64,000 nt of DNA from a virus. Position numbers and translations under genes: made by a program. Location: the IMG/VR virus record IMGVR_UViG_3300023079_000003; one strand, written 5' to 3'. The notes below the pieces were generated by a model. That model saw only the letters and a list, made by a program, of their open reading frames with translations, was not told where the DNA came from and did not search any database. Shown piece by piece: positions 9,522 through 61,561 of this stretch (position 1 is the first letter of the stretch; each line of letters starts with the position of its first letter).

Positions 9522-10075
9522 AGATCGTCCGACACGACACCGTCCCCCTCTCCGAGCTGGAGGACGCCTGGAAGATGTACGAGAGCACGTTCTCCGAGAT
9601 CAACGGCCTGGCCGTGCAGCGGCACCTCTTCTACCAGCCGGAGTTCGTCGAGGTCTGCCTTGACCCGCGTGTCCAGAAATGGATCGCCTACGACGACCAG
9701 GGGCTCATCCTCGGCATGTCCCTGATCACGAACCAGCTCGACTCGTGGTCGCTGATCAGCCCCGTCTATTTCGAACGCCGCTACCCGGACCGGTTCCACC
9801 GGGGCGCGATCTGGTACATCGGGTTTGTCGGCGTCGACCGCACCCGCAAGGGCTCCCTGCACGTCTTCTCCGCCCTCATCAGCGGCATGTACCCGCAGGT
9901 CCGCGACTCCGCCGGCATGGCCGTCATGGACTTCTGCGCCTACAACGCCGACGTCCGCCGCCTACCCGAGGTCACCCGGGCGCTCCTCACCAAGTTCAAC
10001 CCTCGCACCCGCCACTACGTGCTCGACGCCCAGAGCTTCCACGGCTACACCTTCGACGGAGAGGCGACCGCCTGA
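9518..10075 (+). CDS. GNAT-like fold protein (putative acyltransferase)
   Basis: WIAYDDQG.ILGMSLI...AIWYIGFVGVD.TRKG, resembling GNAT motif A. Confidence 0.5.
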   Translation: MKIVRHDTVPLSELEDAWKMYESTFSEINGLAVQRHLFYQPEFVEVCLDPRVQKWIAYDDQGLILGMSLITNQLDSWSLISPVYFERRYPDRFHRGAIWYIGFVGVDRTRKGSLHVFSALISGMYPQVRDSAGMAVMDFCAYNADVRRLPEVTRALLTKFNPRTRHYVLDAQSFHGYTFDGEATA

Positions 10076-10491
10076 TGCCCATCCACCGCGACCGCCACAC
10101 CCTCCGCCCCGACGCCGACGGCGACCCCGGAGACGTCATGGCCGGGTTCGGCGTGGCCCTGGTCATGGACCTCCACGGCTGCGACCCCGACCTGATTGCC
10201 GACGGCGAGTACATCACCACCTGGGTCAGACAGTTGGTCCAGCGCATCGACATGGTCCCGTACGGAGACCCGATCCTCGCCCACTTCGGCCACGCCAACC
10301 CGACCACCTCCGGGTACACCGTCGTGCAGCTCATCGAGACCTCGTCGATCGTCGCGCACTTCTCCGAAGGCCGGCACTCCGTGCACATCGACGTCTTCTC
10401 CTGCAAGCCGTACGACACGTACGACGCCCTCACCTTCACCGAGGCCACCTTTAAAGCCCAGGCGACCACATACTCAGTCATCCACCGGTAG
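10075..10491 (+). CDS. speD: S-adenosylmethionine decarboxylase-family proenzyme (pyruvoyl-dependent)
   Basis: MDLHGCD...GYTVVQLIETSSIVAHF...HIDVFSCKPYD; cleavage Ser, His and Cys conserved. Confidence 0.85.
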   Translation: MPIHRDRHTLRPDADGDPGDVMAGFGVALVMDLHGCDPDLIADGEYITTWVRQLVQRIDMVPYGDPILAHFGHANPTTSGYTVVQLIETSSIVAHFSEGRHSVHIDVFSCKPYDTYDALTFTEATFKAQATTYSVIHR

Positions 10492-13065: not shown

Positions 13066-13366
13066 CACCGACCTGGCCGACCGGCTGATGCGGAAGCTGT
13101 GGCACCGGCGCACCCAACTCGCCTACGAACTGAACGTGCAGTGCAACTACGCGTTCATCGGCCGGGAGATTGAGATGCTGCTCAGGGTCCACGCCCCCCG
13201 CCCGGCCGACCAGCCCCCGTGGGAGACCGGCAGGCTCCCTCCTCTGATGGGCATCGACCTCGTCCCGTCCGACAGCCTCCGCCACGACGAGTGGCAGCTC
13301 CGCGACCAGTCCGGCACGGTCCGGGCCTTCGGCACCCTCACCGACATCCGCGAGGAAACCTCATGA
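13058..13366 (+). CDS. Hypothetical protein
   Basis: Coupled ORF. Confidence 0.65.
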   Translation: MDSTDLADRLMRKLWHRRTQLAYELNVQCNYAFIGREIEMLLRVHAPRPADQPPWETGRLPPLMGIDLVPSDSLRHDEWQLRDQSGTVRAFGTLTDIREETS

Positions 13367-14325
13367 AATTCTTCAACCGGACACCCGAGCCCGACCCGGA
13401 CGACCAGGTGTCCGTGACCATCACCCCGCCCGACGCCGACGGCAAACGCCGCTTCACCCTCACACCCCCGCAGGAGACCCCCGTGCCCGACCAGCAGACC
13501 CCCGACGACGCCTTCGACGGTGGCAGCGCCCTCACCGAGGATCAGTACGCCGCCCGTAAGGCGTGGCAGATGGACCCAGCCGCCCTCGCGGACGAAACCC
13601 CCACAGCCCAGCAGGCCGCCGTGAACGACCCCACCGTCCAGCGGTTCGTCAACGCCCCCGGCGAGGTCCGCCGGCGCATCCGCGACCTGGAAGCAGCCGA
13701 CCTCGCCCCGTCCGAGCACGAGCACGAGCAAGGCCCGGCCATCACCGGCACCCAGCTCACCATCACCCCAGAGGACATCTGCCCCAACTGCGGGCAGCGG
13801 ATGCCCTCCGACGCCGCCCTCCTGCAGGCCGGTGTCGACCTCCTCACCGGCGCGCAGGTTACCGACCAGCTCACCGTCCGCTTCTACGAGATCGTGTTCG
13901 AGCTGGCCCCCGAAGCCCGCGCCCTCTTCGACGACCCCGACGCCGGGAAGTCCTGGCAAGAGCTGGTCGACGTCAACGCCCCGACCGACTCCTGGGGGCG
14001 CAACCAGAGGGACAAGATCGTCTCCTCGATCGCCCTCCTGGCCAAGCACTACGGCGACACCGAGGAAACCAGCGACGACCCCGACTTCCTCGACCGCGCC
14101 CTCGTCTCCATGGGCCGCGCCCACTCCCGGTTCAACCTCACGGTCGAGCACTACGGCATCGTCGGCACCGCCCTGCTCCGCGCACTGCAGGAGTTCGCCG
14201 GCGACGCCTGGACCCCCGCCATGGAGGCCGCCTGGACCCGCGCCTACAAGTACATGGCCGGGACGATGCTGCGCGGCGAGGCAACCCCGAACCGGGGGCA
14301 GACGGGACGCCGGCGGCGGGTATGA
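13363..14325 (+). CDS. Globin-domain protein (acidic N-terminal region, CxxC, then a 3/3 bacterial haemoglobin domain)
   Basis: RFYEIVFELAPEARALF (B10 Tyr, CD1 Phe), NQRDKI (E7 Gln), MGRAHSRFNLTVEHYGIVGTALL (F8 His), WTPAMEAAWTRAY. Confidence 0.9.
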   Translation: MKFFNRTPEPDPDDQVSVTITPPDADGKRRFTLTPPQETPVPDQQTPDDAFDGGSALTEDQYAARKAWQMDPAALADETPTAQQAAVNDPTVQRFVNAPGEVRRRIRDLEAADLAPSEHEHEQGPAITGTQLTITPEDICPNCGQRMPSDAALLQAGVDLLTGAQVTDQLTVRFYEIVFELAPEARALFDDPDAGKSWQELVDVNAPTDSWGRNQRDKIVSSIALLAKHYGDTEETSDDPDFLDRALVSMGRAHSRFNLTVEHYGIVGTALLRALQEFAGDAWTPAMEAAWTRAYKYMAGTMLRGEATPNRGQTGRRRRV

Positions 14326-16865: not shown

Positions 16866-17158
16866 AGAACCACCTGCCCCGCGAACTCGTCACCGTCGTC
16901 CGCCCGGGCGGACACCCGACCGTCACCCGGGTCCGCCGCACGGCCACCTTCCGCCTGGTCGGGGAGCCCGCCACCCGGGCCTGCCCCCACACGATCACCA
17001 CCTGGGACGAGATCACCGACCCCGTGCAGGGCGAGCACCACCGCGAGCGCACCTACCTCCGCCGCACCCTCACCCCGTGCGAGCGGACCGACGGGCACTA
17101 CCGCGACCTCGAGCACCCGGAGAACGCCGCTCACCGGGCAGGGAGCATCACGTGGTGA
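16862..17158 (+). CDS. Hypothetical protein
   Basis: GGAG RBS; GTGA overlap. Confidence 0.65.
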   Translation: MKNHLPRELVTVVRPGGHPTVTRVRRTATFRLVGEPATRACPHTITTWDEITDPVQGEHHRERTYLRRTLTPCERTDGHYRDLEHPENAAHRAGSITW

Positions 17159-17268
17159 AGGCCGGTTGGATGCGCGCCCTCACCGACCGGATGGTTGGCT
17201 GGTACTGGGCGTGGAAGTGGCGCCGCTGGTCCTCGCTGGGCCACCGCCGCGACGACCCACCGGCTTGA
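17152..17268 (+). CDS. Trp/Arg-rich microprotein
   Basis: GGGAG RBS; coupled to the previous gene. Confidence 0.45.
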   Translation: MVKAGWMRALTDRMVGWYWAWKWRRWSSLGHRRDDPPA

Positions 17269-17293
17269 TCAGCAAGCTAGCTGGCGCTATTGT
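17265..17293 (+). promoter_or_regulatory. Housekeeping-sigma promoter heading the biosynthetic operon
   Basis: TTGATC-N17-TATTGT upstream of the GGGAGG RBS and GTG at 17332. Confidence 0.65.
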
Positions 17294-17331
17294 CGCCCCA
17301 ACAGGAGTGTGTCCACAGCCGGGAGGCAACA

Positions 17332-18210
17332 GTGCCCGAAGACCGCCGCCTCGACTACATGCCCCTCACCGAGGTCGCGCGGGCACACCGCAACCCGAAG
17401 AAGCATGACTCCGTCGGCATCGCCCGCAGCATGGACGAGTTCGGAGTTGTCGAGATCCCCGCCCTGGACGAACGCACCGGGCGCCTCGTCGCCGGCCACG
17501 GCCGACTCGACGTGTGGTTGGCGGCGGCGGCCAAGCAGCAGCAGCCGCCCTCCGGGGTGAAGGTCGGACCGGACGGCGTCTGGCTGGTCCCCGTCCTGCG
17601 CGGCTGGGCATCAAAGGACGACGCGCACGCTGAGGCGTACCTCGTCGGCTCGAACCAGCTCACCATCAACGGCGGGTGGGACGATCCCGGCCTGGCCAAG
17701 CTCCTCGACGACCTGGCCGCAGAGGACAACAGCCTCCTCCGGGTCACCGGCTTCGACGACGACCAGCTCGACAAGCTCCTCTCGTCGACCGACACCCTGG
17801 GCGACCCCGCCGGCGGGTTCCTCAAGGACATGGCCTCCCAGCCGTTCGGCCAGACCGTCGAGCAGCAGCCCCCACCCCAGGGGCCACCGGACTACGACTG
17901 GCCCCCGCCACCGCAGACCTACACCCCCGGCGAGCCCGGCGGCGGCGGCGACGAGGAAGGCCCGGTCGGACCGCAGCTCCCCCCGGAGTTCCCGCCCACC
18001 GCGTACGGCCCCGCCGGCACTGCCGCCCAGTACGCCCCGGTCTCCTGGGTTCTCCACGCCGATGCGCGCACCCGGCTCCGCGCGGTCCTCCGCCACCTGC
18101 AGAAGACCCGCGAACTGGCCACCTCCGCCGAAGCCGTCAACGCCCTGGTCGACGACTACATCACCGCGCACAACATCACCATCGAGCAGGCAGAGGAACA
18201 GCCCGCATGA
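17332..18210 (+). CDS. ParB/Srx N-terminal domain protein
   Basis: NPKKHD..GIARS..EFG...DERTGRLVAGHGRL; N.LT..GGWD...L; TGFDDDQL; Pro/Gln linker. Confidence 0.85.
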   Translation: MPEDRRLDYMPLTEVARAHRNPKKHDSVGIARSMDEFGVVEIPALDERTGRLVAGHGRLDVWLAAAAKQQQPPSGVKVGPDGVWLVPVLRGWASKDDAHAEAYLVGSNQLTINGGWDDPGLAKLLDDLAAEDNSLLRVTGFDDDQLDKLLSSTDTLGDPAGGFLKDMASQPFGQTVEQQPPPQGPPDYDWPPPPQTYTPGEPGGGGDEEGPVGPQLPPEFPPTAYGPAGTAAQYAPVSWVLHADARTRLRAVLRHLQKTRELATSAEAVNALVDDYITAHNITIEQAEEQPA

Positions 18211-18686
18211 CCGGCATCCAGATCGTGAACGTCACCCAAACGGCCAGCACCGGCATCCTTGAGGCGCACCTCGGATGGAAGGACGTCCACGGCGCCCCCG
18301 CCGTCGGAATCCCCATGCAGTCGAACGGGCAGCTCGGCGCCGACCTCCTCCACGTCCGCGCCGGCGAGCAGTTCCCCGTGCACACCCACCCCGGGGATCA
18401 CCTGCTCTACTGCGTAGGCGGCCAGGGCACGATCACCGTCGACCAGGTCGTCTACCAGATCCGCCCCGGCGACCTCTACATGGTCGACGGCGCCGTGCCC
18501 CACGCGGTCGGCGCGATCACCGACCACACCATCCTTGCCATCGGCTCCCCCCACAAGCCGGTCGATTCCCCGGAGCGGATGACCTGGTGCGACTGGGAGG
18601 GCAACCCGGTCGAGAAACCGGTCGGCGTCGCCGGCGGCGCGGTACTCCACGATTACGTGTCCCCCGTCCTCCGCCGCATCAAATGA
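18207..18686 (+). CDS. Cupin domain protein
   Basis: FPVHTHPGDHLLYCVGGQG...PGDLYMVDGAVPHAV. Confidence 0.85.
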   Translation: MTGIQIVNVTQTASTGILEAHLGWKDVHGAPAVGIPMQSNGQLGADLLHVRAGEQFPVHTHPGDHLLYCVGGQGTITVDQVVYQIRPGDLYMVDGAVPHAVGAITDHTILAIGSPHKPVDSPERMTWCDWEGNPVEKPVGVAGGAVLHDYVSPVLRRIK

Positions 18687-19837
18687 GCCTTGACCTCACC
18701 GGCCGCCGCTGGCCTGAGGCACCGCGCTCCTCCGAGCGCCTGGCCGTCGCCGAAGCCCTCCAATCCCAGGTGTGGACCGGCGGGCAGTTCACCGAGCTGG
18801 TCGAGCAGCAGATGACAGAGCTGACCGGCGCCCGACACTGCGTGACCTTCAACTCCTGCACCTCCGCACTCCACGCCGTCCTTGCCTCCGACCAGTACGC
18901 GTCGACGACCGGGCGCATCTACACCACCCCCCTGACGTTCGTCGGCACGGTCACCGGCGCCGGGCACCTCGGCTACGACATCGAGTACCGCGACGTCCAC
19001 CCGGACACCCTGAACCTGAACCTGCCACCGGCTAACCCCCTGCCGGTCTACAACGGCCGGATTCTCGCCGTCGACCTTCACGGGGTGCCCCATAGCATCG
19101 ACCGGGATCAGGTCATCACCGACGCGTGCCAGTCGCTCGGCACCACGATCGGCGGCAAGCACCTCGGCGCGCACGGTACGCACTGCTGGTCGTTCTCCTC
19201 GGCCAAGCTCATCGCCGCCCCCGACGGCGGGGCAGTCACCACGAACAATGCCGCCCTCGCCGCCCTGCTCCGCCGGCAACGCGACTACGGGGTACGGACC
19301 CAGACCGTCCCCGGCCGGTCGAACGGCATGATGATGCACCGCGCCGACGGGCACAACTGGCGGCCGTCCGAGCTGACCATGGCCCTCGTTGCCGCCCGAC
19401 TGGAGATCCTCCAATGGGACCGCGACTCCACGGACGGCAACCTCTCCGCCCGCGCGTACCGGGTCGGCACCCGCCTCCACGAGGCCATCGACCTGGCCGG
19501 ACTGTGGAGGCAGCAGACCCGGCCGAACACCCGGGTTGCCTGGCACAAAATCCGGATCGGCCCCCCGAACTGGCAGGAACACTCCGGTGTCCACGCCGCC
19601 AACGAGCTGGGTCACCGCCTCGAGGCCGCTGGTATCCCCGTCCACCGGTGGGGTGCCATCCCCCTTCACCGGCACCCCGCCTACTTCAAGCCGACCTCGT
19701 TCCCGGTCGCGGAAGCCGCCGCCCGGTCGACGTTCTGCCTCGGCACCGAGGACTGCCCCCCGCTCACCTGGACCCCCGAAGAGGTCGAACAGGTGTGCGA
19801 CACCATCATCAAGATCGGGAAGACGGTCAGCGTATGA
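18683..19837 (+). CDS. DegT/DnrJ/EryC1/StrS-family PLP aminotransferase
   Basis: FNSCTSALH, TPLTFVGT, DACQSLG, WSFSSAKLI (PLP lysine), DGGAVTTN. Confidence 0.9.
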   Translation: MSLDLTGRRWPEAPRSSERLAVAEALQSQVWTGGQFTELVEQQMTELTGARHCVTFNSCTSALHAVLASDQYASTTGRIYTTPLTFVGTVTGAGHLGYDIEYRDVHPDTLNLNLPPANPLPVYNGRILAVDLHGVPHSIDRDQVITDACQSLGTTIGGKHLGAHGTHCWSFSSAKLIAAPDGGAVTTNNAALAALLRRQRDYGVRTQTVPGRSNGMMMHRADGHNWRPSELTMALVAARLEILQWDRDSTDGNLSARAYRVGTRLHEAIDLAGLWRQQTRPNTRVAWHKIRIGPPNWQEHSGVHAANELGHRLEAAGIPVHRWGAIPLHRHPAYFKPTSFPVAEAAARSTFCLGTEDCPPLTWTPEEVEQVCDTIIKIGKTVSV

Positions 19838-20973
19838 ACCCGCAGGTCAAGGTCGGCATCATCGGCGTCGGGAACTGCGCGCGCGCCCTCCTCGAAGGCA
19901 CCGCCTACTACCGGGCGCGCGAGTCCGGCACCCAGTTCACCGGCCGCGAGCGCATTGCCGGGCTCATGCACACCATGGTCGGACCGTACGGTCCCGGCGC
20001 GATCGAGCCCGTAGCCGCCTGGGACGTCGACACCGAGAAGGTCGGGAAAGACCTGTGGACCGCGATCCGCTCCGGGCAGAACCTCGACGTCGGCATCCGC
20101 CTCGACCGAGGTGAGGAGCCGGTCGGCGCGGACGTTGAAGTCCAGCGAGCCCCCACCCTCGACGGCACCGGCGCACGCTACCTCGACAAGATCACCCTCG
20201 CGGAGGACTGGCCGAACATCGACGGCCGCGAGGTCGAGCAGCAGATCCGCGACTCCGGCGTGCAGGTGCTCCTGAACTACCTGCCCGTCGGCTCTCAGAC
20301 CGCCACCGAGTGGTGGGCCGAGCGCGCCCTCAACACCGGCTGCGCGTTCGTGAACAACATCCCGGTATTCATCGCCCGGAACCCGACCTGGCGGCAGCGG
20401 TTCCGCGACGCCGGCCTCGCCCTCGTCGGAGACGACATCAAGTCACAGCTCGGCGCCACCTACCTCCACCGCGCCCTCGTGAAGGCGTTCTCGGACCGGG
20501 GCATCACCCTCGACCGCACCTTCCAGCTCAACGTCGGCGGCAACATGGACTTCTACAACATGCTGGAGCGCAGCCGGTTGGTGACGAAGAAGGAGTCCAA
20601 GACCGGCGCCGTCACCGACGCCTACGCCGGCAAGCTCGCCCCCGACAACGTGCACATCGGCCCCTCCGACTACGTGCCGTGGCTGGGCGACACCAAGATC
20701 GCCATCGTCAAGTGCGAAGGCCGGGGGTTCGGCGGGGCGCCGATCGAGGTCGACATGACGATCAAGGTGCCCGACTCCCCGAACAGCGCCGGGGTGGTCA
20801 TCGACGCGGCCCGGCTCGCCCGGTACGCCACCGACCGCAACGACGTGCACGTTGACCGGTGGGTGTCAGCCTGGCTGTTCAAGGCGCCCCCGGCCGACGT
20901 CGCGCAGGAGTCCGACCTGCTGGCCATGCAGCGCCTCGACGACTGGCTGCACGGCGAGGCCGGACTTCGATAG
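19834..20973 (+). CDS. ino1: Inositol-3-phosphate synthase (myo-inositol-1-phosphate synthase)
   Basis: IIGVGNCA, NYLPVGS, GDDIKSQLGAT, QLNVGGNMDF, SKTGAV, DSPNSAG..ID. Confidence 0.95.
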   Translation: MNPQVKVGIIGVGNCARALLEGTAYYRARESGTQFTGRERIAGLMHTMVGPYGPGAIEPVAAWDVDTEKVGKDLWTAIRSGQNLDVGIRLDRGEEPVGADVEVQRAPTLDGTGARYLDKITLAEDWPNIDGREVEQQIRDSGVQVLLNYLPVGSQTATEWWAERALNTGCAFVNNIPVFIARNPTWRQRFRDAGLALVGDDIKSQLGATYLHRALVKAFSDRGITLDRTFQLNVGGNMDFYNMLERSRLVTKKESKTGAVTDAYAGKLAPDNVHIGPSDYVPWLGDTKIAIVKCEGRGFGGAPIEVDMTIKVPDSPNSAGVVIDAARLARYATDRNDVHVDRWVSAWLFKAPPADVAQESDLLAMQRLDDWLHGEAGLR

Positions 20974-21695
20974 TGCCGATCACCCCGTACCTGATCTCCC
21001 TCCCGCGCAGGCAGGACCGGCGGGACGAGTGGGCCACGGCCTGGGACGGGTACGGATTCAACCCACCCCGGGTGATCGACGGCGTTGACGGCTCAGCCCT
21101 CCCGGCGGACCGGGTCGACTCGCACATGAGGACGGCCCTCGCCGCCGGGCACAAGATCAAGCACCGGCGCCACTTCGCCGGCACCCTGGGCTGCCTCCTC
21201 GCCCACCGCGCTGCCTGGCAGACCTGGCTCATGGACAGATCCCCGGGCGGGTATCTCCTGCTCATGGAGGACGACGCCTCCCCCACCCCCGGGCTCACCC
21301 CCGCCCGGTGGCTGCTCGACCTGCAGCAAGCTGTCCGGCAGCTCCCGCCCGGCTGGCTGATGCTGAACCTCGGGGCCAAGGTCCGCAACCAGCCCCGTGA
21401 GGTGCCCGGCGCCCCGAGCCTGGCCTACTCCGGCCGCGACACCCAATGCCTCCACGCCATCCTCTACACGGTCGATGGGGTCATGGCCATGCTCAAGGCC
21501 ACCGCCGACCAGGAGCAGCCCCTCGACTTCGCGTGGCGTCCCGTCCTCGCCGGCGGCAACTGCTACTCGACCCGCCGGTGGCTGGCCATCCAGCGCTGGT
21601 CGTACTCGGACATCTCCCACTTCACCCGGTCGCCGCACCTCGATCACCGGCAGCGCATCGCCCGGTTCCACCAGCCGGAGGTGATCCACCGGTGA
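20973..21695 (+). CDS. Glycosyltransferase family 25-like
   Basis: YLISLPRRQDRR...IDGVDG...GCLLAHRAAW...LLMEDDA...HAILYT. Confidence 0.8.
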   Translation: MPITPYLISLPRRQDRRDEWATAWDGYGFNPPRVIDGVDGSALPADRVDSHMRTALAAGHKIKHRRHFAGTLGCLLAHRAAWQTWLMDRSPGGYLLLMEDDASPTPGLTPARWLLDLQQAVRQLPPGWLMLNLGAKVRNQPREVPGAPSLAYSGRDTQCLHAILYTVDGVMAMLKATADQEQPLDFAWRPVLAGGNCYSTRRWLAIQRWSYSDISHFTRSPHLDHRQRIARFHQPEVIHR

Positions 21696-22483
21696 CCGCC
21701 GACCTGGACGTCATCAACACCTGGACCAACCCCAACCCGGGGCTGCGCCGGCGCACCTACGAGCAGGTGCCGCGCCGGGGCGGCAGGTGGCGGCCGACCT
21801 GGACGGTCGACGGAGTCACGATCAACCGGCCCGGCTGGGACTACGACCGCAACCAGTTCACCGGCGTCCGGAACAACGGCACCGCCTGGACCGCCGACTT
21901 CACCCCCGGGCTGCTCTACACGATCGCCTCCCAGGTGCGCGGCTGGTGCTGGCCCCGCCAGGGCGGCACCCTGTACGAGCTGGCCCAAGCCTCGACCGGG
22001 CAGGTCGTCGAGATCGGCTCCTGCTTCGGCCTCTCCGCCGTGTGGACCGGCTGGGGCATCCGCACCTCGTCCGACCCCGACCGGCGCCTTCATTGCGTCG
22101 ACACCTGGCACAGCCTCGACGTCAGGGGTGACGGCTCCCCCGCCGGGAAGTCCTCCCAGCCGGAGTTCATCCAAAACATGACCTACACCGGCCTCGCCTA
22201 CCACACCTGCCTCCACCAGATGCTCTCCGAACAGGCCGCTGCGACCTGGGACGAGGGACCTGTCGGCATGATCTACATCGACGGCTGGCACACCTACGCC
22301 ATGGCAAAAGCCGACCACCTGTCCTGGCTCCCCCACCTCACCCCCGGCGCGGTAGTCGCCTTCGACGACTGCTCCCCCGCCTGGCCCGGGGTGCTCCGCT
22401 ACCAGCGCGAGCTGGCCGGGCGCGGAGACCACGAGCTGATCGGCCGGGCCGACTCGATGCTCACCTGGAGGTACCGGCCGTGA
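21692..22483 (+). CDS. Class I SAM-dependent methyltransferase (Methyltransf_24-like)
   Basis: VVEIGSCFGLS, HCVDTW, MIYIDGWHTY, LTPGAVVAFDD. Confidence 0.85.
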   Translation: MTADLDVINTWTNPNPGLRRRTYEQVPRRGGRWRPTWTVDGVTINRPGWDYDRNQFTGVRNNGTAWTADFTPGLLYTIASQVRGWCWPRQGGTLYELAQASTGQVVEIGSCFGLSAVWTGWGIRTSSDPDRRLHCVDTWHSLDVRGDGSPAGKSSQPEFIQNMTYTGLAYHTCLHQMLSEQAAATWDEGPVGMIYIDGWHTYAMAKADHLSWLPHLTPGAVVAFDDCSPAWPGVLRYQRELAGRGDHELIGRADSMLTWRYRP

Positions 22484-23310
22484 GAACCGCCCTGAAGGCC
22501 AAGAGCGCCTACCGCAACGAGGACGTCGCCCGGGTGTTCGCCACCATCCGCGACTTCATCAGCGAGGACGAGGCCAACGCCGCCGTCGACCAGGCAGTCC
22601 GCGAGGTCCACCAGACCGTCGGCCTCCGCAACCTCGACCGGGTCGCCTACGGCTGGTCCGGCGGCAAGGACTCCATCGCCCTGCAGGTCGTCATGGAAGC
22701 CGCCGGCGTACAACGGGCCATCCTCGGCACCATCCCCCACCTCGAGTTCAAGGCGTACCTCGACTGGGTCGAGGCGAACCAGCCGGACGGCCTCTACCAC
22801 CACATGAACATGGCACTCGACGTCGATTGGCTGGCCCGGCCCGGAAACGACCGGTACCTGTTCCCCAAGACCTCCCGGCTCGGCTACTTCTGGACCACCG
22901 CCGGCACCCGCGCCGCGCAGAAGGCATACCAGCGGCAGTACGACCCGCCGTTCCAGATTTACGGGCGCCGCTGGGCCGACGGCAACCAGATCGGACCGGA
23001 CGGGTTCTCCGTCTCCGCCGCCACCGGCATCCGCTCCTACAGCCCGCTGAGGGCCTGGTCCCACGAGACCGTCCTCGGCGTAATCCACTACTTCAACCGG
23101 CCTCTCCCTCCCGTGTACGGGTGGCCTCACGGGTGGACCGCCGGCACCGGCACCTGGTGCGGTCGCCGTGTCGGCACCGACGACGAGGCATGGGCCGAGA
23201 CCTGGACCATCGAGTCCGACCGGGTGCGCGAGGCAGCCGACGCCGGAGTGACCGGCGCCGCCGAGTGGATGCAGAGGAACGGCCATGGCCGGACAGAACA
23301 AAAGACCTGA
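22480..23310 (+). CDS. PP-loop / PAPS reductase-family protein
   Basis: YGWSGGKDS, YGRRWAD, SPLRAWSHETV..YF..PLPPVY. Confidence 0.85.
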   Translation: MRTALKAKSAYRNEDVARVFATIRDFISEDEANAAVDQAVREVHQTVGLRNLDRVAYGWSGGKDSIALQVVMEAAGVQRAILGTIPHLEFKAYLDWVEANQPDGLYHHMNMALDVDWLARPGNDRYLFPKTSRLGYFWTTAGTRAAQKAYQRQYDPPFQIYGRRWADGNQIGPDGFSVSAATGIRSYSPLRAWSHETVLGVIHYFNRPLPPVYGWPHGWTAGTGTWCGRRVGTDDEAWAETWTIESDRVREAADAGVTGAAEWMQRNGHGRTEQKT

Positions 23311-24658
23311 GACCTACACCCGGACCGGCCGGGGCGGCGCCGCGCACGTCCTCCCCCGAGTGCAGCTCGACACCGACGTCATGACCCTGGCCAAGGAGCG
23401 CATCGCCATCGCCGCCGAGATCCACGACAACATCCTCGTGGCGTTCTCCGGCGGCAAGGACTCCACCGTCACCCTGCAGCTCACCCTCGCCGTTCTCCAC
23501 GAGAACCCCGAGCTGGGTGCCAAGCACCTGCCGCTGCGGGTCGTGTTCGGGGACGAGGAGTGCATCCCGAAGGAGACCGAGGAGTACGTCCGCCGGGTGT
23601 CGCAGCGGCCGGACGTCCGCCTTGAGTGGTACTGCCTGCCGTTGAAGATGCGCAACGCCTGCTCCCGCAAGCACCCCGAGTGGTGGACGTGGGCGCCCGA
23701 GTCCGAGGAGCTGTGGGCCAGGCCCCTGCCCCCGGAGGCGATCACCCACCTCGACGGCTTCACGAACTGGCCACCCGAAGCCCGCCTGTCGTGGCCGCAG
23801 ACCAACGAACTCCTCGCACCCCCGCACCTCGGGAACGTGTGCATCCTGATGGGCATCCGCGCGCAGGAGTCCCTGACCCGGCTCCGCGCCGTGTCCATCG
23901 CCGGCAAGCGCGAATACAACTGGCTGGTCAAGCAGGGCGGTGGCAACGAAATCCTCAACGGCTCCTCAGGCGGGAACGTGTGGAAGGCGTACCCGATCTA
24001 CGACTGGCTGACCGAGGACGTGTGGACGGCCCCGAAGCGGTTCGGCTGGGACTACAACCACGCCTACGACCTGCTCGCCATGGCCGGGGTCAACCCCGCG
24101 AAGCAGCGATGCTCGCCGGCGTTCGGGGAGGAGCCGATCGGCGGCCTCCACGTCTTCGCCCAAGCCTTCCCTGAGGTGTGGGAGAAGATGGTCTACCGGG
24201 TGCCCGGTGTCGGCTCCGCCTACCGGTACGCCCTCACCGAGCTGTACGGGCACGGCTCCCGCCCGGAGCGCCCGGACGACATGACCTGGCACGACTTCAT
24301 CCTGCACTTCGTGGCCAAGCACCCGGACGGCATGAGGCAGAAGCTCGCCGCCCGGCTGACCGACATCATCCGCCGGCACTACCGGGTCACGTCGAACCCG
24401 ATGCTGGTCAAGGCCCCCCACCCCGACAGCGGCCTCTCCTGGGACTGGCTCCTCATGGTCGCCATGCGCGGGGACACCAAGCAGAGGAAGCAGCCGACGA
24501 ACCGGATCACCCGGGAGCCCGTCGAGTTGAAACGCATGTGGCACCGGTACGCGAAGGAGCTGGACGACACGATCAAGGCAGGCCAGTTCGATATCCTGTC
24601 CTATCCTCGTCACGCCCCCCGCGACCCCTACGCCCTGATCCCTGAGGAGTTCCGGTGA
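23285..24658 (+). CDS. IbrA/YbdN-like PAPS reductase-family protein (DUF3440-type)
   Basis: VAFSGGKDS, WYCLP..MRNACS..WW.W, MGIRAQES..R, YPIYDW.TEDVW, DYN.AYD. Confidence 0.85.
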   Translation: MAGQNKRPETYTRTGRGGAAHVLPRVQLDTDVMTLAKERIAIAAEIHDNILVAFSGGKDSTVTLQLTLAVLHENPELGAKHLPLRVVFGDEECIPKETEEYVRRVSQRPDVRLEWYCLPLKMRNACSRKHPEWWTWAPESEELWARPLPPEAITHLDGFTNWPPEARLSWPQTNELLAPPHLGNVCILMGIRAQESLTRLRAVSIAGKREYNWLVKQGGGNEILNGSSGGNVWKAYPIYDWLTEDVWTAPKRFGWDYNHAYDLLAMAGVNPAKQRCSPAFGEEPIGGLHVFAQAFPEVWEKMVYRVPGVGSAYRYALTELYGHGSRPERPDDMTWHDFILHFVAKHPDGMRQKLAARLTDIIRRHYRVTSNPMLVKAPHPDSGLSWDWLLMVAMRGDTKQRKQPTNRITREPVELKRMWHRYAKELDDTIKAGQFDILSYPRHAPRDPYALIPEEFR

Positions 24659-24960
24659 CCCTTACCGAAGACCCGTCCGACCCGCGACTCACCCACGGAC
24701 CCGACGACGGACCCGCCGCGCAGGCCCCGGTCTACCTGGTCCTGTCGGAGGAGGAGCGAGCCCAGGGTTTCATCCGCCCGGTCCGGCGAACCTACGTGCA
24801 CACGGTCTGTGGTGCGGTCACGACGATGGCCCCGGCGATCGCAGAGACGTACGCGCGCAACCCCGGCTTCTACGGGGCCACCTACTGCACCGGGTGCAGC
24901 CAGCACCTCCCCGTTGGCGAGTTCACCTGGGACGGCGACGGCAGCGTGGTCGGATCATGA
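24655..24960 (+). CDS. Small Zn-finger protein
   Basis: H.VCG..T.M...AETYARNP.FYGATYCTGC..H. Confidence 0.75.
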   Translation: MTLTEDPSDPRLTHGPDDGPAAQAPVYLVLSEEERAQGFIRPVRRTYVHTVCGAVTTMAPAIAETYARNPGFYGATYCTGCSQHLPVGEFTWDGDGSVVGS

Positions 24961-25574
24961 CCGATACCGATCGCCCCGTATCCACCCCTCACCGGGAAGT
25001 CATGACCGATTTTGGTCAGCTCGACCCGGGCGGGTCGGCCCTCTCCCTGGTCGCCCAGCCCGTCAGCAGCATCCAGTGGGTGCCGGCCTCGGCGCTGTCC
25101 GCGAACGACTGGAACCCCAACAAGCAGGCTCCGCCCGAGTTCAGACTGCTGAAGCAGTCCCTGCTCGAGGACGGCTGGACACAGCCGATCGTGGTCCGCG
25201 CCCACGACGACGGCGCCCGCCTGGAGATCGTCGACGGATTCCACCGGTGGACCCTCGCCTCCAAGGACAAGCAGGTCGGCGCGCTCACCACCGTCGACGG
25301 GCAGGTGCTCGTCCCCGTCGTCACCCTGCACGAGACCTCCGACCAGGAGGCCCGCGCCTCGACGATCCGCCACAACCGGGCGCGCGGCACCCACCTCGTG
25401 CTCCGCATGGCCGATATCGTGGCCGCCCTCGTGAAGGCCGGCATGACGACCGAGCAGGTGCAAAAGCAGCTCGGCATGGACGAGGAAGAGGTCGAGCGGC
25501 TCCTCGACCGGGGCAACATGCTCAACCGTGGATCCCGCACCGACGGCAGCTTCGGCACCGGCTGGACAGTCTGA
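24957..25574 (+). CDS. IbrB/YbdM-like ParB domain protein
   Basis: ANDWNPN..APPE..LL..SLLEDGWTQPIV, IVDGFHRW, ASTIRHNRARGTH. Confidence 0.85.
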   Translation: MTDTDRPVSTPHREVMTDFGQLDPGGSALSLVAQPVSSIQWVPASALSANDWNPNKQAPPEFRLLKQSLLEDGWTQPIVVRAHDDGARLEIVDGFHRWTLASKDKQVGALTTVDGQVLVPVVTLHETSDQEARASTIRHNRARGTHLVLRMADIVAALVKAGMTTEQVQKQLGMDEEEVERLLDRGNMLNRGSRTDGSFGTGWTV

Positions 25575-27019
25575 TGACGTACTCCACCAAGGGCCTCTAC
25601 ATCAACGGCGAGTGGGACCAGACCGGCTACGGCAAGGGGATCTACTCGCCCATTGACGGCCGCCTGATCGGCACCGCCTGGTTTGGGCAGATCACCCACC
25701 TCGCCGCCGCCTCCGCAGCCGCCCGCAACGCCCTCGACGGCGAATGGTCCCGGTGGACCGCAGAGGACCGGGCCGCCGCGCTGCGCCGGCTCGCAGACGG
25801 ATTCCACGACCGGCAGCAGGATCTCGGCGCGATGATCCTCGCGGAGGTCGGATCCCCGGTCGACTTCGCGTACGGGCCGCAGATCGACCACCCGCTCCGC
25901 ATCATCAACTACTACGCGTCCGTGGCCGAGAAGTACCGGTTCTCGGAGTCGCGGGTCAACGGGGGCGGGGACGCGCCGGGCACGATCGTCCGCAGGCTCC
26001 CGGTCGGCGCGGTCGGAATCATCACCCCGTGGAACATGCCCCTCAAAACGATCATGATGAAGATGGCGCCCGCGCTCGCCGCCGGGTGCACGGTCGTGAT
26101 CAAACCGGCCGAGGAAACCCCCTTCAACGCCATGGTGCTGGCCGAGCTGGTCGACGCCGCCGGATTCCCGCCCGGCGTGGTCAACGTCGTCCCGGCCGTA
26201 CGCGAGGACGCCGCCTACCTGCCGACCTCGACCTACCTCGACAAGATCGCCTTCACCGGGTCAACCGCCGTCGGCAAGTGGATCGCCCAGCAGTGCGGCG
26301 CCGGCATCCGCCGCTACTCCCTCGAACTGGGCGGCAAGTCCCCGACCGTGCTCCTCCCCGACGCCGACCTCGACGCCTGGGAGGCGTCCGTCCCCTCAGC
26401 CTCCCTGCTCAACAACGGGCAGATTTGCTCGAACCAGACACGCATCCTGTACCCCCGGAAGCTGCAGACCGAGGTCATCCGCCGGCTCGAACGGGTCCTC
26501 GACCGGCAGCGGGTCGGAGACCCCTCCCTCCCGGGCACCACGATGGGGCCGCTCATCACCACCGCCGCAGTCGACCGCTACCACGACGCCCTCAGGGGCG
26601 CTCAGCTCGCCGGCGGCACCGTACGGTACGCGGAGGACGCGGTTGACCCGCGACGCCCCTCAGGGGGCAACTGGGTCACCCCCGCCCTGGTCTCCGGCGT
26701 CGGCCGCGAAGCCCTCATCGCCCGCAAAGAGGTGTTCGGGCCGGTCCTCGTCGCCATGCCGTACGACAACGAGCCGCACGCGGTCGAGCTGGCCAACGAC
26801 TCGCCGTACGGTCTCCACGCCGGCGTCTGGTCCCACCGGAAGTCCGCCGCCCTGGCCGTGGCCAACCGGCTGCGGGTCGGGCAGATCCAGATCAACGGTG
26901 CGGACATGCCGCTGCACACCCCCCTGGGCGGGTTCAAGGAGTCCGGCTGGGGCCGCGAGCTGGGACCTGAGGGCATGACCGGCTACCTCGAAACCAGTGC
27001 GACGGTGGCCTCATGGTGA
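25574..27019 (+). CDS. NAD(P)+-dependent aldehyde dehydrogenase
   Basis: ITPWNMP, KPAEETP, FTGSTAVG, ELGGKSP, NGQICS, EVFGPV, GGFKESGWGRE. Confidence 0.95.
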   Translation: MTYSTKGLYINGEWDQTGYGKGIYSPIDGRLIGTAWFGQITHLAAASAAARNALDGEWSRWTAEDRAAALRRLADGFHDRQQDLGAMILAEVGSPVDFAYGPQIDHPLRIINYYASVAEKYRFSESRVNGGGDAPGTIVRRLPVGAVGIITPWNMPLKTIMMKMAPALAAGCTVVIKPAEETPFNAMVLAELVDAAGFPPGVVNVVPAVREDAAYLPTSTYLDKIAFTGSTAVGKWIAQQCGAGIRRYSLELGGKSPTVLLPDADLDAWEASVPSASLLNNGQICSNQTRILYPRKLQTEVIRRLERVLDRQRVGDPSLPGTTMGPLITTAAVDRYHDALRGAQLAGGTVRYAEDAVDPRRPSGGNWVTPALVSGVGREALIARKEVFGPVLVAMPYDNEPHAVELANDSPYGLHAGVWSHRKSAALAVANRLRVGQIQINGADMPLHTPLGGFKESGWGRELGPEGMTGYLETSATVASW

Positions 27020-27501
27020 TGCGCAACGACATGGCGTTCCGGGCCGAGGTCGCCAAGCGCCGGGCCGAGGCCATCAAGCTCCGGCTGGCCGGGGCCACCT
27101 ACCAGCAGATCGCAGACTCCGAGCTGTACCCGGAGGGCACCCACAGGTCGCAAGCGTTCGTCGACATCAAACGCGCCCTGCAGGAGCACCAGGCTGAACT
27201 GCACGCCGACGTCGAGCTGCTGCGCACCGAGGACCTGCTCCGGCTCGACCGGCTGAACCTCGCCATGTGGCAGCGCGCGATCGGCGGCGACGTCCGCGCG
27301 GCAACGCTTTGCTTGAAGATCATCGAGCAGCGGAGCAAGCTCACGGGTACCGAGGCGCCCCAGCGCCACGCCTGGGAGAGCGAGTCCGATATTGACCGCG
27401 CCATACGAGACCTTCGAGAGCAGCTCGGCGAACCGGGACGACAAGGTCCGCCTGCTATCGAAACTGGAGGAGTTGCAGAGGCTTCGCCGACTGGCGACTG
27501 A
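27013..27501 (+). CDS. terS: Terminase small subunit (HTH type)
   Basis: RRAEAIKLRLAGATYQQIA...RLDRL..AMW..A..GD..A....IEQRSKL.G; lies directly upstream of TerL. Confidence 0.7.
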   Translation: MVMRNDMAFRAEVAKRRAEAIKLRLAGATYQQIADSELYPEGTHRSQAFVDIKRALQEHQAELHADVELLRTEDLLRLDRLNLAMWQRAIGGDVRAATLCLKIIEQRSKLTGTEAPQRHAWESESDIDRAIRDLREQLGEPGRQGPPAIETGGVAEASPTGD

Positions 27502-29038
27502 ACAGGCCCGCGCACGCTTCCTTGAGGTCAACCCCACCCCCGGGGTGTTCGCCCGGCGGATGCAACGCAACGTCAAGCAGACGCCGGCGCTTGACGCGAT
27601 CGACCGCGAGCTGGTCCGCCTCTCCCGCGTCCCGCTTGACCGTGGGCGGCTCATGGTGTTCGTCCCGCCACAGGAGGGCAAGTCCACCCGGGTCTCCTGC
27701 TGGTACCCGCTGTGGCGGCTCGCCCAGGACCCGACCCTCCGCATCGCCATCGTGTCCTACAACCAGGACAAGGCCCGCCGGTGGGGGCGCTGGCTCCGGG
27801 CCGCGATCCGAGGCTTCCCCGAGCTGGGCCTGACCCTGAAGAACGACAGCCGCGCATCTGACCACTTCGAGCTGACCTCCGGCGGGTCCGTCCTGTGCGT
27901 CGGTGTCGGCGGCGGCATCACCGGCGAACCGGTCGATGAGATGATCATCGACGACCCGGTGCGCGGCCGGGCCGAGGCAGAGTCCCCCCGCTACCGGGAA
28001 GCGGCCTGGGAGTGGTGGGAGTCGAACGGGGCCACCCGGTTGTCCTCCCGGGGCCGGGTGGTCCTCATGCTCACCCGCTGGCACGCGGACGACCTCGCCG
28101 GCAGGCTCATCAAGAACGAGCCCATGGAGTGGCACGTCCTGCGCATCCCCGCCATCCGGCACCCCGAACTGCCGGTCATCCGAGGGCACGACGGCGCCTC
28201 CGTCTACGACCCCAACGGTGAACTGATCTCCGTCCAGAACCGCAGGCCCGGCTACTACAAGGAGCTGAAGGCCAAACGGTCCGGGTACGTGTGGCGGTCG
28301 GTCTACGACCAGGACCCCGTGGCCGCAGAGGGCAACCTGTTCAAGCGCGACGACTTCCGGTTCTGGCAGCCGCTCCCGCGTGACCCGGCCCGGGTCGACG
28401 CCCTCTCCGGTGCGCGCATCCAGCTCCCCGACATCGGCGTCAACATCTACCTCGCGGACTACTGGCGGTTCATCACCGTCGACCTGGCCGCGTCGAAGAA
28501 GACCAGCGCCGACTTCACCGTCTGCTCCGTGTGGATGATCTTCGACGGGCACCTGATCCTCCTCGACCGCGTCCGAGGCCGGATCGAGGAGGCCGCGCAC
28601 TGGGACATGCTGCGCCCCCTCGTCGCTAAGTGGGCCGCCCCTGACGTGTTCGTCGAGCGAGGGTTCATCGGCACCACCCTCGTCATCGACGCCACGAAGC
28701 ACAACATCCGCATCCAGCCGGTCGACCCCGACACGGACAAGGTCACCCGGGCGCTGCCGGCGACCTACCGCACCGCCTCGCACACCTGCTGGTTCCCCGC
28801 CCAGGTCGACTGGCTGGACGAGTGGCTGGACGAACTGGCCGAGTTCCCCCAGGGCGCCCACGATGACCAGGTCGACACGTTCGCGTACGCGGCCCGCATC
28901 GCCTCCGCGCACTGGCTCCCCCCGGAGTCCCCCAAGCGCGAGACCGAGCAGACCGCAACGGCGGCCTCCGACCTGGCGTTCCAAGCCTCGACCGGGCAGT
29001 CCGGCGGGGTCGACTTCTTCAAGAACTGGCCTGTCTAG
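27392..29038 (+). CDS. terL: Terminase large subunit
   Basis: PPQEGKS Walker A, IIDDPVRG Walker B, TRWHADDLAG, VDLA...DFT, FPQGAHDDQVD. Confidence 0.95.
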   Translation: MTAPYETFESSSANRDDKVRLLSKLEELQRLRRLATEQARARFLEVNPTPGVFARRMQRNVKQTPALDAIDRELVRLSRVPLDRGRLMVFVPPQEGKSTRVSCWYPLWRLAQDPTLRIAIVSYNQDKARRWGRWLRAAIRGFPELGLTLKNDSRASDHFELTSGGSVLCVGVGGGITGEPVDEMIIDDPVRGRAEAESPRYREAAWEWWESNGATRLSSRGRVVLMLTRWHADDLAGRLIKNEPMEWHVLRIPAIRHPELPVIRGHDGASVYDPNGELISVQNRRPGYYKELKAKRSGYVWRSVYDQDPVAAEGNLFKRDDFRFWQPLPRDPARVDALSGARIQLPDIGVNIYLADYWRFITVDLAASKKTSADFTVCSVWMIFDGHLILLDRVRGRIEEAAHWDMLRPLVAKWAAPDVFVERGFIGTTLVIDATKHNIRIQPVDPDTDKVTRALPATYRTASHTCWFPAQVDWLDEWLDELAEFPQGAHDDQVDTFAYAARIASAHWLPPESPKRETEQTATAASDLAFQASTGQSGGVDFFKNWPV

Positions 29039-60760: not shown

Positions 60761-61561
60761 TCAGGATAGAACGCGCCGTGCCATCTGCTCCGGGTAGCCG
60801 GACATCTGCGGGGTCTGCGGGTAGTCCTCCGCCGGCAGCGCCTTGCGGATCGCCGCGAACCAGGTGTTGTACGTGGCCCGGCCACTGAGCCCGGCCAGGG
60901 CGTCGATGGCCACGCGGGTGAACGCCCCGTTGGGCCGGCGGCCGAAGTACGCGTCGTACGAGAACTCGGCATCCCGGCATCCGGCGATCAGCAGCCCGGC
61001 ATTTCTCGACCGGCCGGTGGTCGGGGCCGCCTGGGCTGCCGCCGCCTGCCGCAGGTCCCTGCCGCCCAGGAACACCGACGGCGGGAGGAACCGTGCCCGG
61101 CGGTGGGTCTTCGTCCCCCGGGGGTTCAGCGGGGCCATCAGCCGGGCGACGGTGCCCGAGTGGCACGAGTCGGAGATGAACACCACCCCGGCGTCCGTGG
61201 GGCGGCCGGAGAGGAGGACGAACAGGTCGTCGTCGAGGATCGGCCCGGAGTTCATGATGTCGTGCGGGACCAGCGCCTCGTCCCGGCCGTCGACCTCGTC
61301 GCCGTTGGTGTCGGGCATCCACGTCCCGTGCCCGGAGTAGGTGATGACCACGGTGTCGCCGGCGGTGGCCCCGCCGAGCACCCGCTCGATCTCCGAGGTG
61401 ATGCCCTCGTAGGTGGCGCCGGAGTCGAACAGCCGGAACGTGATCGCCCCCCGGGCGGCGAGCTGGTCGGACCAGTCCTGGGCGTCATTCACGCAGCCGT
61501 GGAGGTCGGAGTCGGTGCCGGGGTAGTCGTTGATGCCGATGTGCAGTGAGCGGAGTGTCAC
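60761..61561 (-). CDS. Caspase-family (peptidase C14, metacaspase-like) protease
   Basis: LHIGINDY...LHGCVNDA, YSGHG, DEAL.P.D, ISDSCHSGT; His-Cys dyad intact. Confidence 0.92.
   Translation of the reverse strand: MTLRSLHIGINDYPGTDSDLHGCVNDAQDWSDQLAARGAITFRLFDSGATYEGITSEIERVLGGATAGDTVVITYSGHGTWMPDTNGDEVDGRDEALVPHDIMNSGPILDDDLFVLLSGRPTDAGVVFISDSCHSGTVARLMAPLNPRGTKTHRRARFLPPSVFLGGRDLRQAAAAQAAPTTGRSRNAGLLIAGCRDAEFSYDAYFGRRPNGAFTRVAIDALAGLSGRATYNTWFAAIRKALPAEDYPQTPQMSGYPEQMARRVLS

Follow-up and report, generated by a model that had tools for sequence, protein, structure and literature searches.

A co-inherited aminotransferase and myo-inositol-phosphate-synthase paralogue in a phage genome, a candidate cassette for aminocyclitol synthesis

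Inosamines are made in the streptomycin and hygromycin A pathways, and, to our knowledge, every known inosamine route comprises a dehydrogenase step. Aminotransferases of the DegT family can also use keto-sugar phosphates from a partner NAD oxidoreductase, as in the NtdA/NtdC couple of kanosamine synthesis, and in the WbpB/WbpE couple the partner dehydrogenase can reoxidise its NADH with the 2-oxoglutarate that the aminotransferase produces. We know of no description of aminocyclitol synthesis in any virus, and a literature search on this subject found nothing. Here, we focus on two genes of the virus record IMGVR_UViG_3300023079_000003, a stretch of 64,000 nucleotides that was analysed as a whole and is hereafter called the window. 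At positions 18683-20973, it carries a DegT-family aminotransferase gene (protein P0001) followed by an Ino1-like gene (protein P0002) coding for a divergent paralogue of myo-inositol-phosphate synthase (MIPS). This pair is one co-inherited, functionally coupled cassette. The reading that we tentatively prefer, granting it a little less than an even chance, is that the cassette is self-contained and converts glucose-6-phosphate to a cyclitol bearing an amine, most likely an inosamine-type phosphate, and that in phages it feeds a module formed by a PP-loop ATPase and the IbrA and IbrB proteins.

The gene pair and its three genomic settings

The region 18683-20973 is filled exactly by two open reading frames (ORFs), both on the + strand:

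18683..19837, + strand: pyridoxal phosphate (PLP)-dependent aminotransferase of the DegT/DnrJ/EryC1/StrS family, P0001, 384 aa (PF01041, E 2.7e-41)
19834..20973, + strand: divergent myo-inositol-phosphate-synthase paralogue, P0002, 379 aa (PF01658, E 1.2e-31)

A previous sequence-only reading of this DNA had named Ino1 first and DegT second; the order is the reverse, with the DegT gene upstream. The ATGA overlap that it reported is confirmed at 19834-19837, where the TGA stop codon of the DegT gene (19835-19837) overlaps the ATG of the Ino1-like gene (19834-19836). The same 4-bp overlap is kept in the related phage loci L005 and L006.

Related loci were drawn from genomes, IMG/VR and assemblies. 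In all 22 loci holding a close relative of the DegT gene, whether in phages, prophages or bacterial chromosomes, the Ino1-like gene lies immediately downstream. At least 26 contigs, from Actinomadura, Spirillospora and Streptomyces and with many of metagenomic origin, are common to the homologue lists of both proteins. The DegT and Ino1-like trees are largely congruent, the copies from biosynthetic clusters forming one clade in both and the phage copies grouping alike. In the Ino1-like tree, the cluster clade (support 97) is nested in phage-borne diversity; in the DegT tree, its counterpart (support 96) has an Actinomadura prophage as sister (support 98). With outgroup rooting, these topologies suggest that clusters of Thermomonosporaceae took the cassette from a prophage-like element, a direction that stays tentative since the deeper nodes lie below 95.

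The constancy of the pair bears on an explanation in which the two enzymes would do unrelated jobs, the Ino1-like protein raising host inositol for phosphatidylinositol or mycothiol, and the DegT enzyme making a nucleoside diphosphate (NDP)-amino-sugar for GT25-like glycosylation of virion proteins or DNA. Sugar-synthesis DegT genes are common in phages, a GT25-like gene and a methyltransferase gene come after the pair in the window, and Ino1-like genes occur alone in phages of Stenotrophomonas, Caulobacter and Ralstonia. However, adjacency of the pair holds throughout the 22 loci, whereas the GT25-like gene is found in only two and the methyltransferase gene in two, and the operon showed neither an NDP-sugar 4,6-dehydratase nor a nucleotidyltransferase. 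The stand-alone genes (Stenotrophomonas Menderavirus, Caulobacter Cr30, Ralstonia RP13) represent a different, distant lineage of 31-41% identity that comes without DegT, and P0002 itself is not of the housekeeping type (see the following section). We consider such a division of labour very improbable.

A distant Ino1-like gene (41% identical) is also present in Stenotrophomonas phage Marzo (L001 6092-11615), inside a 7-deazaguanine cluster composed of GTP cyclohydrolase (FolE), the Ino1-like gene, a QueC-like gene, a DpdA-type transglycosylase and a second QueC-like gene. Here too, a MIPS-like gene has PP-loop enzymes and a DNA-modifying enzyme as its neighbours. Nothing relevant was found in the literature on 7-deazaguanine plus inositol.

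The cassette occurs in three settings. The first comprises nine phage or prophage loci, including a syntenic 71.8-kb contig, prophages of Actinomadura sp. K4S16 and of Streptomyces sp. NRRL B-1347 and 111WW2, and IMG/VR contigs. In all nine, the cassette is followed by 0-2 variable genes, then by the genes for a PP-loop ATPase of 276 residues (PPloop276), IbrA and IbrB, upstream of the terminase. Among the INPHARED phages, a nucleotide search with positions 17000-23000 and a tblastn search with the DegT protein gave no match, bearing in mind that the window's own or a very near record may be left out of this set; the nearest virus record (G001, a 34.9-kb fragment) has no DegT gene.

The second setting, cluster type A, consists of 12 Thermomonosporaceae loci with an operon coding for an acyl carrier protein (ACP), DegT, Ino1 and an acyltransferase (L004/L055/L056 of Actinomadura graeca, L008-L011, L014, L016-L018 and L020-L022). 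A divergently transcribed phosphatase gene of the Inositol_P family stands beside the cassette in 10 of them, and is absent from L016 and L022. The flanking genes code for an aromatic ammonia-lyase/aminomutase-type enzyme, an AMP ligase, ketosynthase/chain-length factor/ketosynthase (KS/CLF/KS) proteins, a ketoreductase (KR) and a free-standing condensation domain, together with a type III polyketide synthase (PKS), a 3'-phosphoadenosine-5'-phosphosulfate (PAPS) sulfotransferase and an arylsulfotransferase. These last three presumably recall the two-step sulfation of caprazamycins. We know of no product of this cluster type; a sulfated N-acyl aminocyclitol, perhaps bearing an aryl polyene, is predicted.

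The third setting, cluster type B, is represented by L012 and by L013, the latter from Spirillospora sp. CA-294931. As annotated in L013, it combines DegT-Ino1 with ACPs, KAS III, an ATP-grasp ligase, a PLP decarboxylase, an acyl-CoA dehydrogenase, a phosphopantetheinyl transferase (PPTase), an arylsulfotransferase, a carbamoyltransferase, a flavin monooxygenase and CysD/CysN.

The two enzymes

P0002 belongs to the inositol-phosphate-synthase family, with 109.5 bits against PF01658 for a cut-off of 27. With the NCBIfam equivalog of the housekeeping type (TIGR03450, mycothiol_INO1), it reaches 361 bits, below the cut-off of 638; likewise, the cluster copy of A. graeca scores 372 bits, against 692.5 bits for a housekeeping copy (L052). 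Four genomes each possess a module copy, 66-71% identical to P0002, plus a second, housekeeping copy of 48-49% identity, and in the tree the module clade stands on a long stem, apart from both the housekeeping and the Chloroflexi-type enzymes. Judged by its sequence, P0002 is a separate paralogue, distinct from housekeeping Ino1. Since the protein is such a paralogue, with 361 bits where the equivalog demands 638, a simple increase in the host's pools of inositol, phosphatidylinositol or mycothiol appears unlikely. The same paralogy, and the aminotransferase always found alongside, disfavour the alternative first put forward for the window, namely that the pair feeds phosphatidylinositol or mycothiol pools.

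With regard to catalysis, 83 module-clade sequences were compared with 61 canonical MIPS sequences. The motifs GIIGVGNCA (the GxGxxG region), DDIKSQ, NVGGNMDF, KxxSK, GDTK, DSPNSAG and KAPP are invariant in both groups, so that MIPS chemistry is likely kept in P0002, and the module clade retains every residue that is invariant in the canonical enzymes. At 26 positions, a different residue is fixed in the module clade; those beside catalytic residues are R287T and W289K/I around Lys288, S230Y and S262D/Q263A. In P0002, the core chemistry is likely conserved, with a hexose phosphate being oxidised with NAD and closed to a ring by aldol reaction, and the specificity or the handling of the product is likely altered.

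These substitutions, of which several adjoin catalytic residues, and the long stem separating the module clade from canonical MIPS are what would be expected if the paralogue used another sugar phosphate or closed another ring, yielding an aminocyclopentitol or other amino-carbasugar. The MIPS family already includes one member with other chemistry, Ari2 (PDB 6K96). An Ari2-like function was considered for P0002 and rejected: the protein is much closer to M. tuberculosis Ino1 (PDB 1GR0, 327 bits) than to Ari2 (164 bits), and it keeps the Lys of DDIKSQ where Ari2 has Ala (DDLASH). As every canonical invariant residue is also kept, the formation of such a different amine seems unlikely to us.

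P0001 matches the DegT family over its full length (PF01041, 142 bits, residues 17-375, profile positions 6-359 of 360). Lys175 (in the SFSSAK motif), Asp147, Gln150 and Ser170 do not vary among 25 relatives. From family knowledge, we take Lys175 to be the Schiff-base Lys, which marks an aminotransferase as opposed to a His-type dehydratase, and Asp147 the expected contact of the PLP ring. In the AlphaFold model (pLDDT 91.7), the DegT-family structures match at a TM-score of about 0.8. Given the invariance of Lys175, Asp147 and Gln150 and a confident prediction of the DegT fold, P0001 looks like a competent aminotransferase.

The family does not by itself reveal the substrate class. A Foldseek search of the PDB returned solved relatives of 19-24% identity (about 22%) and TM-scores of 0.74-0.81, in which Fic25 ranks first, ArnB sixth, 7B0D 18th and RbmB 48th, PseC and WbpE lying within the same TM range; NtdA is not among the solved relatives at E<=1e-10. 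Fic25 acts on a non-nucleotide substrate, and 7B0D is an archaeal 'glutamine-scyllo-inositol transaminase' entry. Inosose, NDP-sugar and non-sugar aminotransferases give similar TM-scores. The best NCBIfam match is PseC, with 115 bits, far below its cut-off, and ESM Atlas look-ups returned generic DegT and PAPS_reduct clusters only. As regards the StsC type named in the sequence-only reading, P0001 belongs to the DegT family, but neither its sequence nor its fold sets it closer to the inosose aminotransferases RbmB and 7B0D than to NDP-sugar enzymes, all solved relatives standing at about 22% identity.

Predicted product and the phage module

The absence of an inositol phosphatase or dehydrogenase from the window, noted when the sequence was first read, is upheld in the searches made. 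With one IMPase-family and 12 GFO/IDH/MocA proteins as queries, tblastn gave no match at E<=1e-3, either in the window or in the phage loci. Pfam and PHROG scans, which took in about 50 of the window's approximately 100 ORFs and are not exhaustive in coverage, revealed neither function. The complete classical inosamine pathway (MIPS, IMPase, inositol 2-dehydrogenase and aminotransferase) accompanies the pair neither in the window nor in the nine phage-type loci. In the biosynthetic clusters, a GFO/IDH/MocA gene was seen only at the edge, about 9 kb away, in 3 of 14 loci, and was rejected as a conserved partner. The phosphatase of cluster type A scores 135 bits with HisN, 113 bits with IMPase and 82 bits with CysQ, all below cut-off. 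The cassette is thus kept in three independent settings, of which one adds a phosphatase and none a dedicated inositol dehydrogenase. For this reason, we favour a route whose ketone is produced by the MIPS paralogue itself and then aminated by the DegT enzyme; the NtdC/NtdA and WbpB/WbpE couples are precedents. The literature on inosamine plus polyene or sulfotransferase held nothing relevant.

The missing steps might be provided by the host. In that classical, host-assisted route, the phage Ino1 would form inositol-3-phosphate, a host IMPase and inositol 2-dehydrogenase would convert it to scyllo-inosose, and the DegT enzyme would be an StsC-type inosose aminotransferase. The MIPS motifs of P0002 are fully canonical, the known inosamine pathways of streptomycin and hygromycin A carry their own MIPS, housekeeping Ino1 was found in each of the four actinomycete genomes searched, and 15 GFO/IDH/MocA genes were counted in the one genome scanned. 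However, a dedicated inositol dehydrogenase is missing from three independent settings, even though cluster type A has a phosphatase; ordinary inositol-3-phosphate would hardly explain the keeping of a strongly diverged Ino1 paralogue; and P0001 is no closer to RbmB and 7B0D than to NDP-sugar enzymes. On balance, host assistance of this kind is a serious alternative, though a rather doubtful one.

In the self-contained route that we prefer, the MIPS paralogue would oxidise glucose-6-phosphate in an NAD-dependent manner and cyclise it by aldol reaction, and the DegT enzyme would transaminate the resulting keto-cyclitol. We infer that it may directly take 2-inosose-1-phosphate, the intermediate normally reduced by MIPS itself, in which case neither a separate phosphatase nor an inositol dehydrogenase would be needed before amination. 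In Thermomonosporaceae clusters, acylation, sulfation or carbamoylation of the product would follow. The substrate, the hand-over of the keto-intermediate, the product and its fate are all deduced in this scheme. An amino-cyclitol is the most economical reading of the sequence data, because the genes are coupled, the MIPS motifs are complete, the aminotransferase residues are kept and an IMPase/HisN-like phosphatase is present in one setting. The original suggestion that the phage could make an inosamine stands in so far as coupling, MIPS motifs and catalytic residues speak for it; its classical form finds its dedicated inositol dehydrogenase in none of the three settings.

Where the product might be used in phages can be approached from the neighbouring genes. 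The pair is part of an 11-gene run (17332-27019) whose junctions are mostly overlaps of -4 or -1. The order is ParB-like, cupin, DegT, Ino1-like, GT25-like, Methyltransf_24, PP-loop ATPase, IbrA-like, a 101-aa ORF, IbrB-like and aldehyde dehydrogenase, and the small and large terminase genes come after it. Besides the pair, the features are:

17332..18210, + strand: ParB-like protein, first gene of the coupled run (PHROG 620/498/723, E ~1e-21)
18207..18686, + strand: Cupin_2 protein, accessory (PF07883, E 5.6e-13; only in the window, L006 and L015)
20973..21695, + strand: GT25-like glycosyltransferase, accessory (PF01755, E 1.7e-5; PHROG 2835; only in the window and L046)
21692..22483, + strand: Methyltransf_24 methyltransferase, accessory (PF13578, E 2.4e-21; only in the window and L006)
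22480..23310, + strand: PP-loop ATPase PPloop276, 276 aa, with a YGWSGGKDS motif (PHROG 424, E 1.6e-12)
23360..24658, + strand: IbrA-like protein with PAPS_reduct and DUF3440 (PF01507, PF11922; PHROG 2302, E 1.5e-79)
25002..25574, + strand: IbrB-like ParB_N protein (PF02195, E 2.6e-6)
25574..27019, + strand: aldehyde dehydrogenase, accessory (PF00171, E 4.7e-123; only in the window and L006)
27392..29038, + strand: large terminase, end marker of the module (PF03237; 77% identical to the Terminase_6N/6C gene of L006)

The cupin, GT25-like, methyltransferase and aldehyde dehydrogenase genes were rejected as obligatory partners of the pair, each being found in only two to three of the nine phage-type loci. 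The aldehyde dehydrogenase reaches no NCBIfam equivalog cut-off, and the best solved relative of the cupin (PDB 9UG7, 104 bits) is titled 'Cupin type-2 domain-containing protein'; a literature search on this entry yielded nothing relevant. In the Actinomadura sp. K4S16 prophage (L015 12249-13663), two genes without Pfam match (247 and 224 aa) lie between Ino1 and the PP-loop gene, in the place occupied in the window by the GT25-like and methyltransferase genes.

The window as a whole is a tailed-phage genome, with Pfam matches to Terminase_6N, Portal_Mu, a ClpP/Mu-like prohead protease, Phage_capsid_4 and a GH25 lysin; its G+C content is about 70%, almost every gene is on the + strand, and the contig from which it comes measures about 68 kb. 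It also codes for a caspase-domain protein near the right genome end (Peptidase_C14, E 3.5e-23, 60761-61561, - strand), a globin-domain protein (13363-14325) shared with the syntenic contig L006, an AdoMet-decarboxylase-family protein (10075-10491) and a DUF1643 protein (2281-2898).

IbrA/IbrB modules, each made of a PAPS_reduct plus DUF3440 protein and a ParB_N partner, are very common among phages and prophages; no biochemical paper was found in the literature on IbrA, IbrB or DUF3440. Close homologues of PPloop276 (at least 50% identity) share contigs with the cassette. Across 68 sequences of this family, no cysteine is conserved. This speaks against a role in sulfur transfer, whereas adenylation with subsequent attack by a nitrogen nucleophile, as in other PP-loop amidoligases, would fit. 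The cassette may be a feeder for a cysteine-free, adenylating PP-loop ATPase and for IbrA and IbrB, and the amine would probably be joined to an ATP-activated acceptor, plausibly a DNA base of the phage or a nucleotide. A DNA or nucleotide target is proposed because of the ParB-like partners and the position beside the packaging genes.

More distant PPloop276 relatives (33-45% identical) belong to the same PPloop-ParB-IbrA-terminase block in unrelated phages of 39-53% G+C, where genes for a sodium:solute symporter and for a 200-aa protein come before the block. Upstream of its DegT-Ino1 pair, L046 also carries a member of this symporter lineage (45% identical). In one prophage-like element, the gene after a distant PPloop276 homologue codes for a class-II glutamine amidotransferase. 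This pattern suggests interchangeable feeders, namely import, ammonia from glutamine and synthesis by DegT-Ino1, supplying one PP-loop/IbrAB machine.

The symporter lineage is represented at L069 4937-10010, L070 4924-8898, L071 4937-10015 and L046 5214-6533; its members are mutually 45-65% identical, and their NCBIfam match is at superfamily level only. In the context of P0273 (JGI 3300047160), the neighbours of a distant PPloop276 homologue are a ferredoxin-like gene and one for a class-II glutamine amidotransferase (GATase_6), next to MmeI/Eco57I-type methylase genes, an arrangement that fits the use of a nitrogen nucleophile by the PP-loop family.

Several points weigh against the self-contained route and its link to DNA. 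Canonical MIPS holds NAD tightly and reduces the inosose phosphate itself, and we know of no precedent for the release of a keto-intermediate by MIPS. The 26 clade-specific substitutions could mean a different sugar phosphate or product. The best NCBIfam and fold matches of P0001 include NDP-sugar enzymes (PseC, ArnB), with Fic25 also among them. Actinomycete hosts usually encode IMPases and inositol dehydrogenases, by which the classical, host-assisted route could run. The Inositol_P-family gene of cluster type A could code for a 3'-phosphoadenosine-5'-phosphate (PAP) phosphatase serving the sulfotransferase of the cluster. Finally, DNA or nucleotides are put forward as the target from the gene neighbourhood only.

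Significance and comparison with known systems

Both proteins come from known families, and what is new is their combination. An obligate cassette of DegT and a MIPS paralogue, lacking a dehydrogenase partner, is found inside an extended phage IbrAB module and in two uncharacterised cluster families; a literature search, including MIPS plus aminotransferase in phages, found nothing on it. Because the dehydrogenase step of the known inosamine routes is lacking, the cassette may hide new two-enzyme chemistry and, if the preferred reading is true, would represent a two-enzyme shortcut from glucose-6-phosphate to an inosamine phosphate. As IbrAB comes with an identifiable small-molecule supplier here, and likewise in relatives where a solute symporter or a glutamine amidotransferase takes that position, the locus may also give a handle on IbrA/IbrB chemistry. 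In other respects, the cassette marks two Thermomonosporaceae cluster families, one with aryl-polyene-type PKS genes and a two-step sulfation set, that point to new natural products of the N-acyl or sulfated aminocyclitol kind, and it points to gene traffic between prophages and biosynthetic clusters. A bolder chain can be imagined, in which the MIPS paralogue hands enzyme-bound 2-inosose-1-phosphate to the DegT enzyme, phages use the aminocyclitol for DNA hypermodification via the PP-loop ATPase and IbrA/IbrB, and clusters later captured the cassette from a prophage; taken as a whole, we hold it to be speculative and unlikely.

Compared with described enzymes, P0002 shares with M. tuberculosis Ino1/MIPS (EC 5.5.1.4) its family, length, NAD-binding glycine motif and conserved catalytic motifs. 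It differs by its long-branch paralogue clade, its sub-equivalog score, the 26 substitutions and the dedicated aminotransferase that always precedes it. Ari2, the five-membered cyclitol phosphate synthase of aristeromycin, is likewise a MIPS-family protein recruited to secondary metabolism; however, the Lys of DDIKSQ that P0002 shares with canonical MIPS is replaced in Ari2 by an Ala, and its match with P0002 amounts to only 164 bits.

The NtdC/NtdA and WbpB/WbpE systems, in which the aminotransferase traps an unstable ketone, resemble the cassette in the translational coupling of an NAD enzyme to a DegT-family aminotransferase, and NtdA, in whose couple 3-oxo-glucose-6-phosphate becomes kanosamine-6-phosphate, uses a sugar phosphate and not an NDP-sugar. 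In those systems, the NAD enzyme is of the GFO/IDH/MocA family, whereas here it belongs to the MIPS family, and the hand-over of a ketone is hypothetical. The StsC-type route of streptomycin and the Hyg18/Hyg25/Hyg17/Hyg8 route of hygromycin A share with the present loci MIPS and a DegT-family aminotransferase, and an IMPase-family gene in one cellular setting. Unlike these classical routes, the cassette comes without inositol dehydrogenase in phages and in either cluster type, and in the phage it lies in an operon beside the terminase. With regard to the IbrA/IbrB (YbdN/YbdM-type) modules, the window has a typical IbrA and, with it, an IbrB-like ParB_N gene shortly before the terminase; here the module also comprises a second PP-loop ATPase, which is cysteine-free, and the DegT/Ino1-like cassette for small-molecule biosynthesis.

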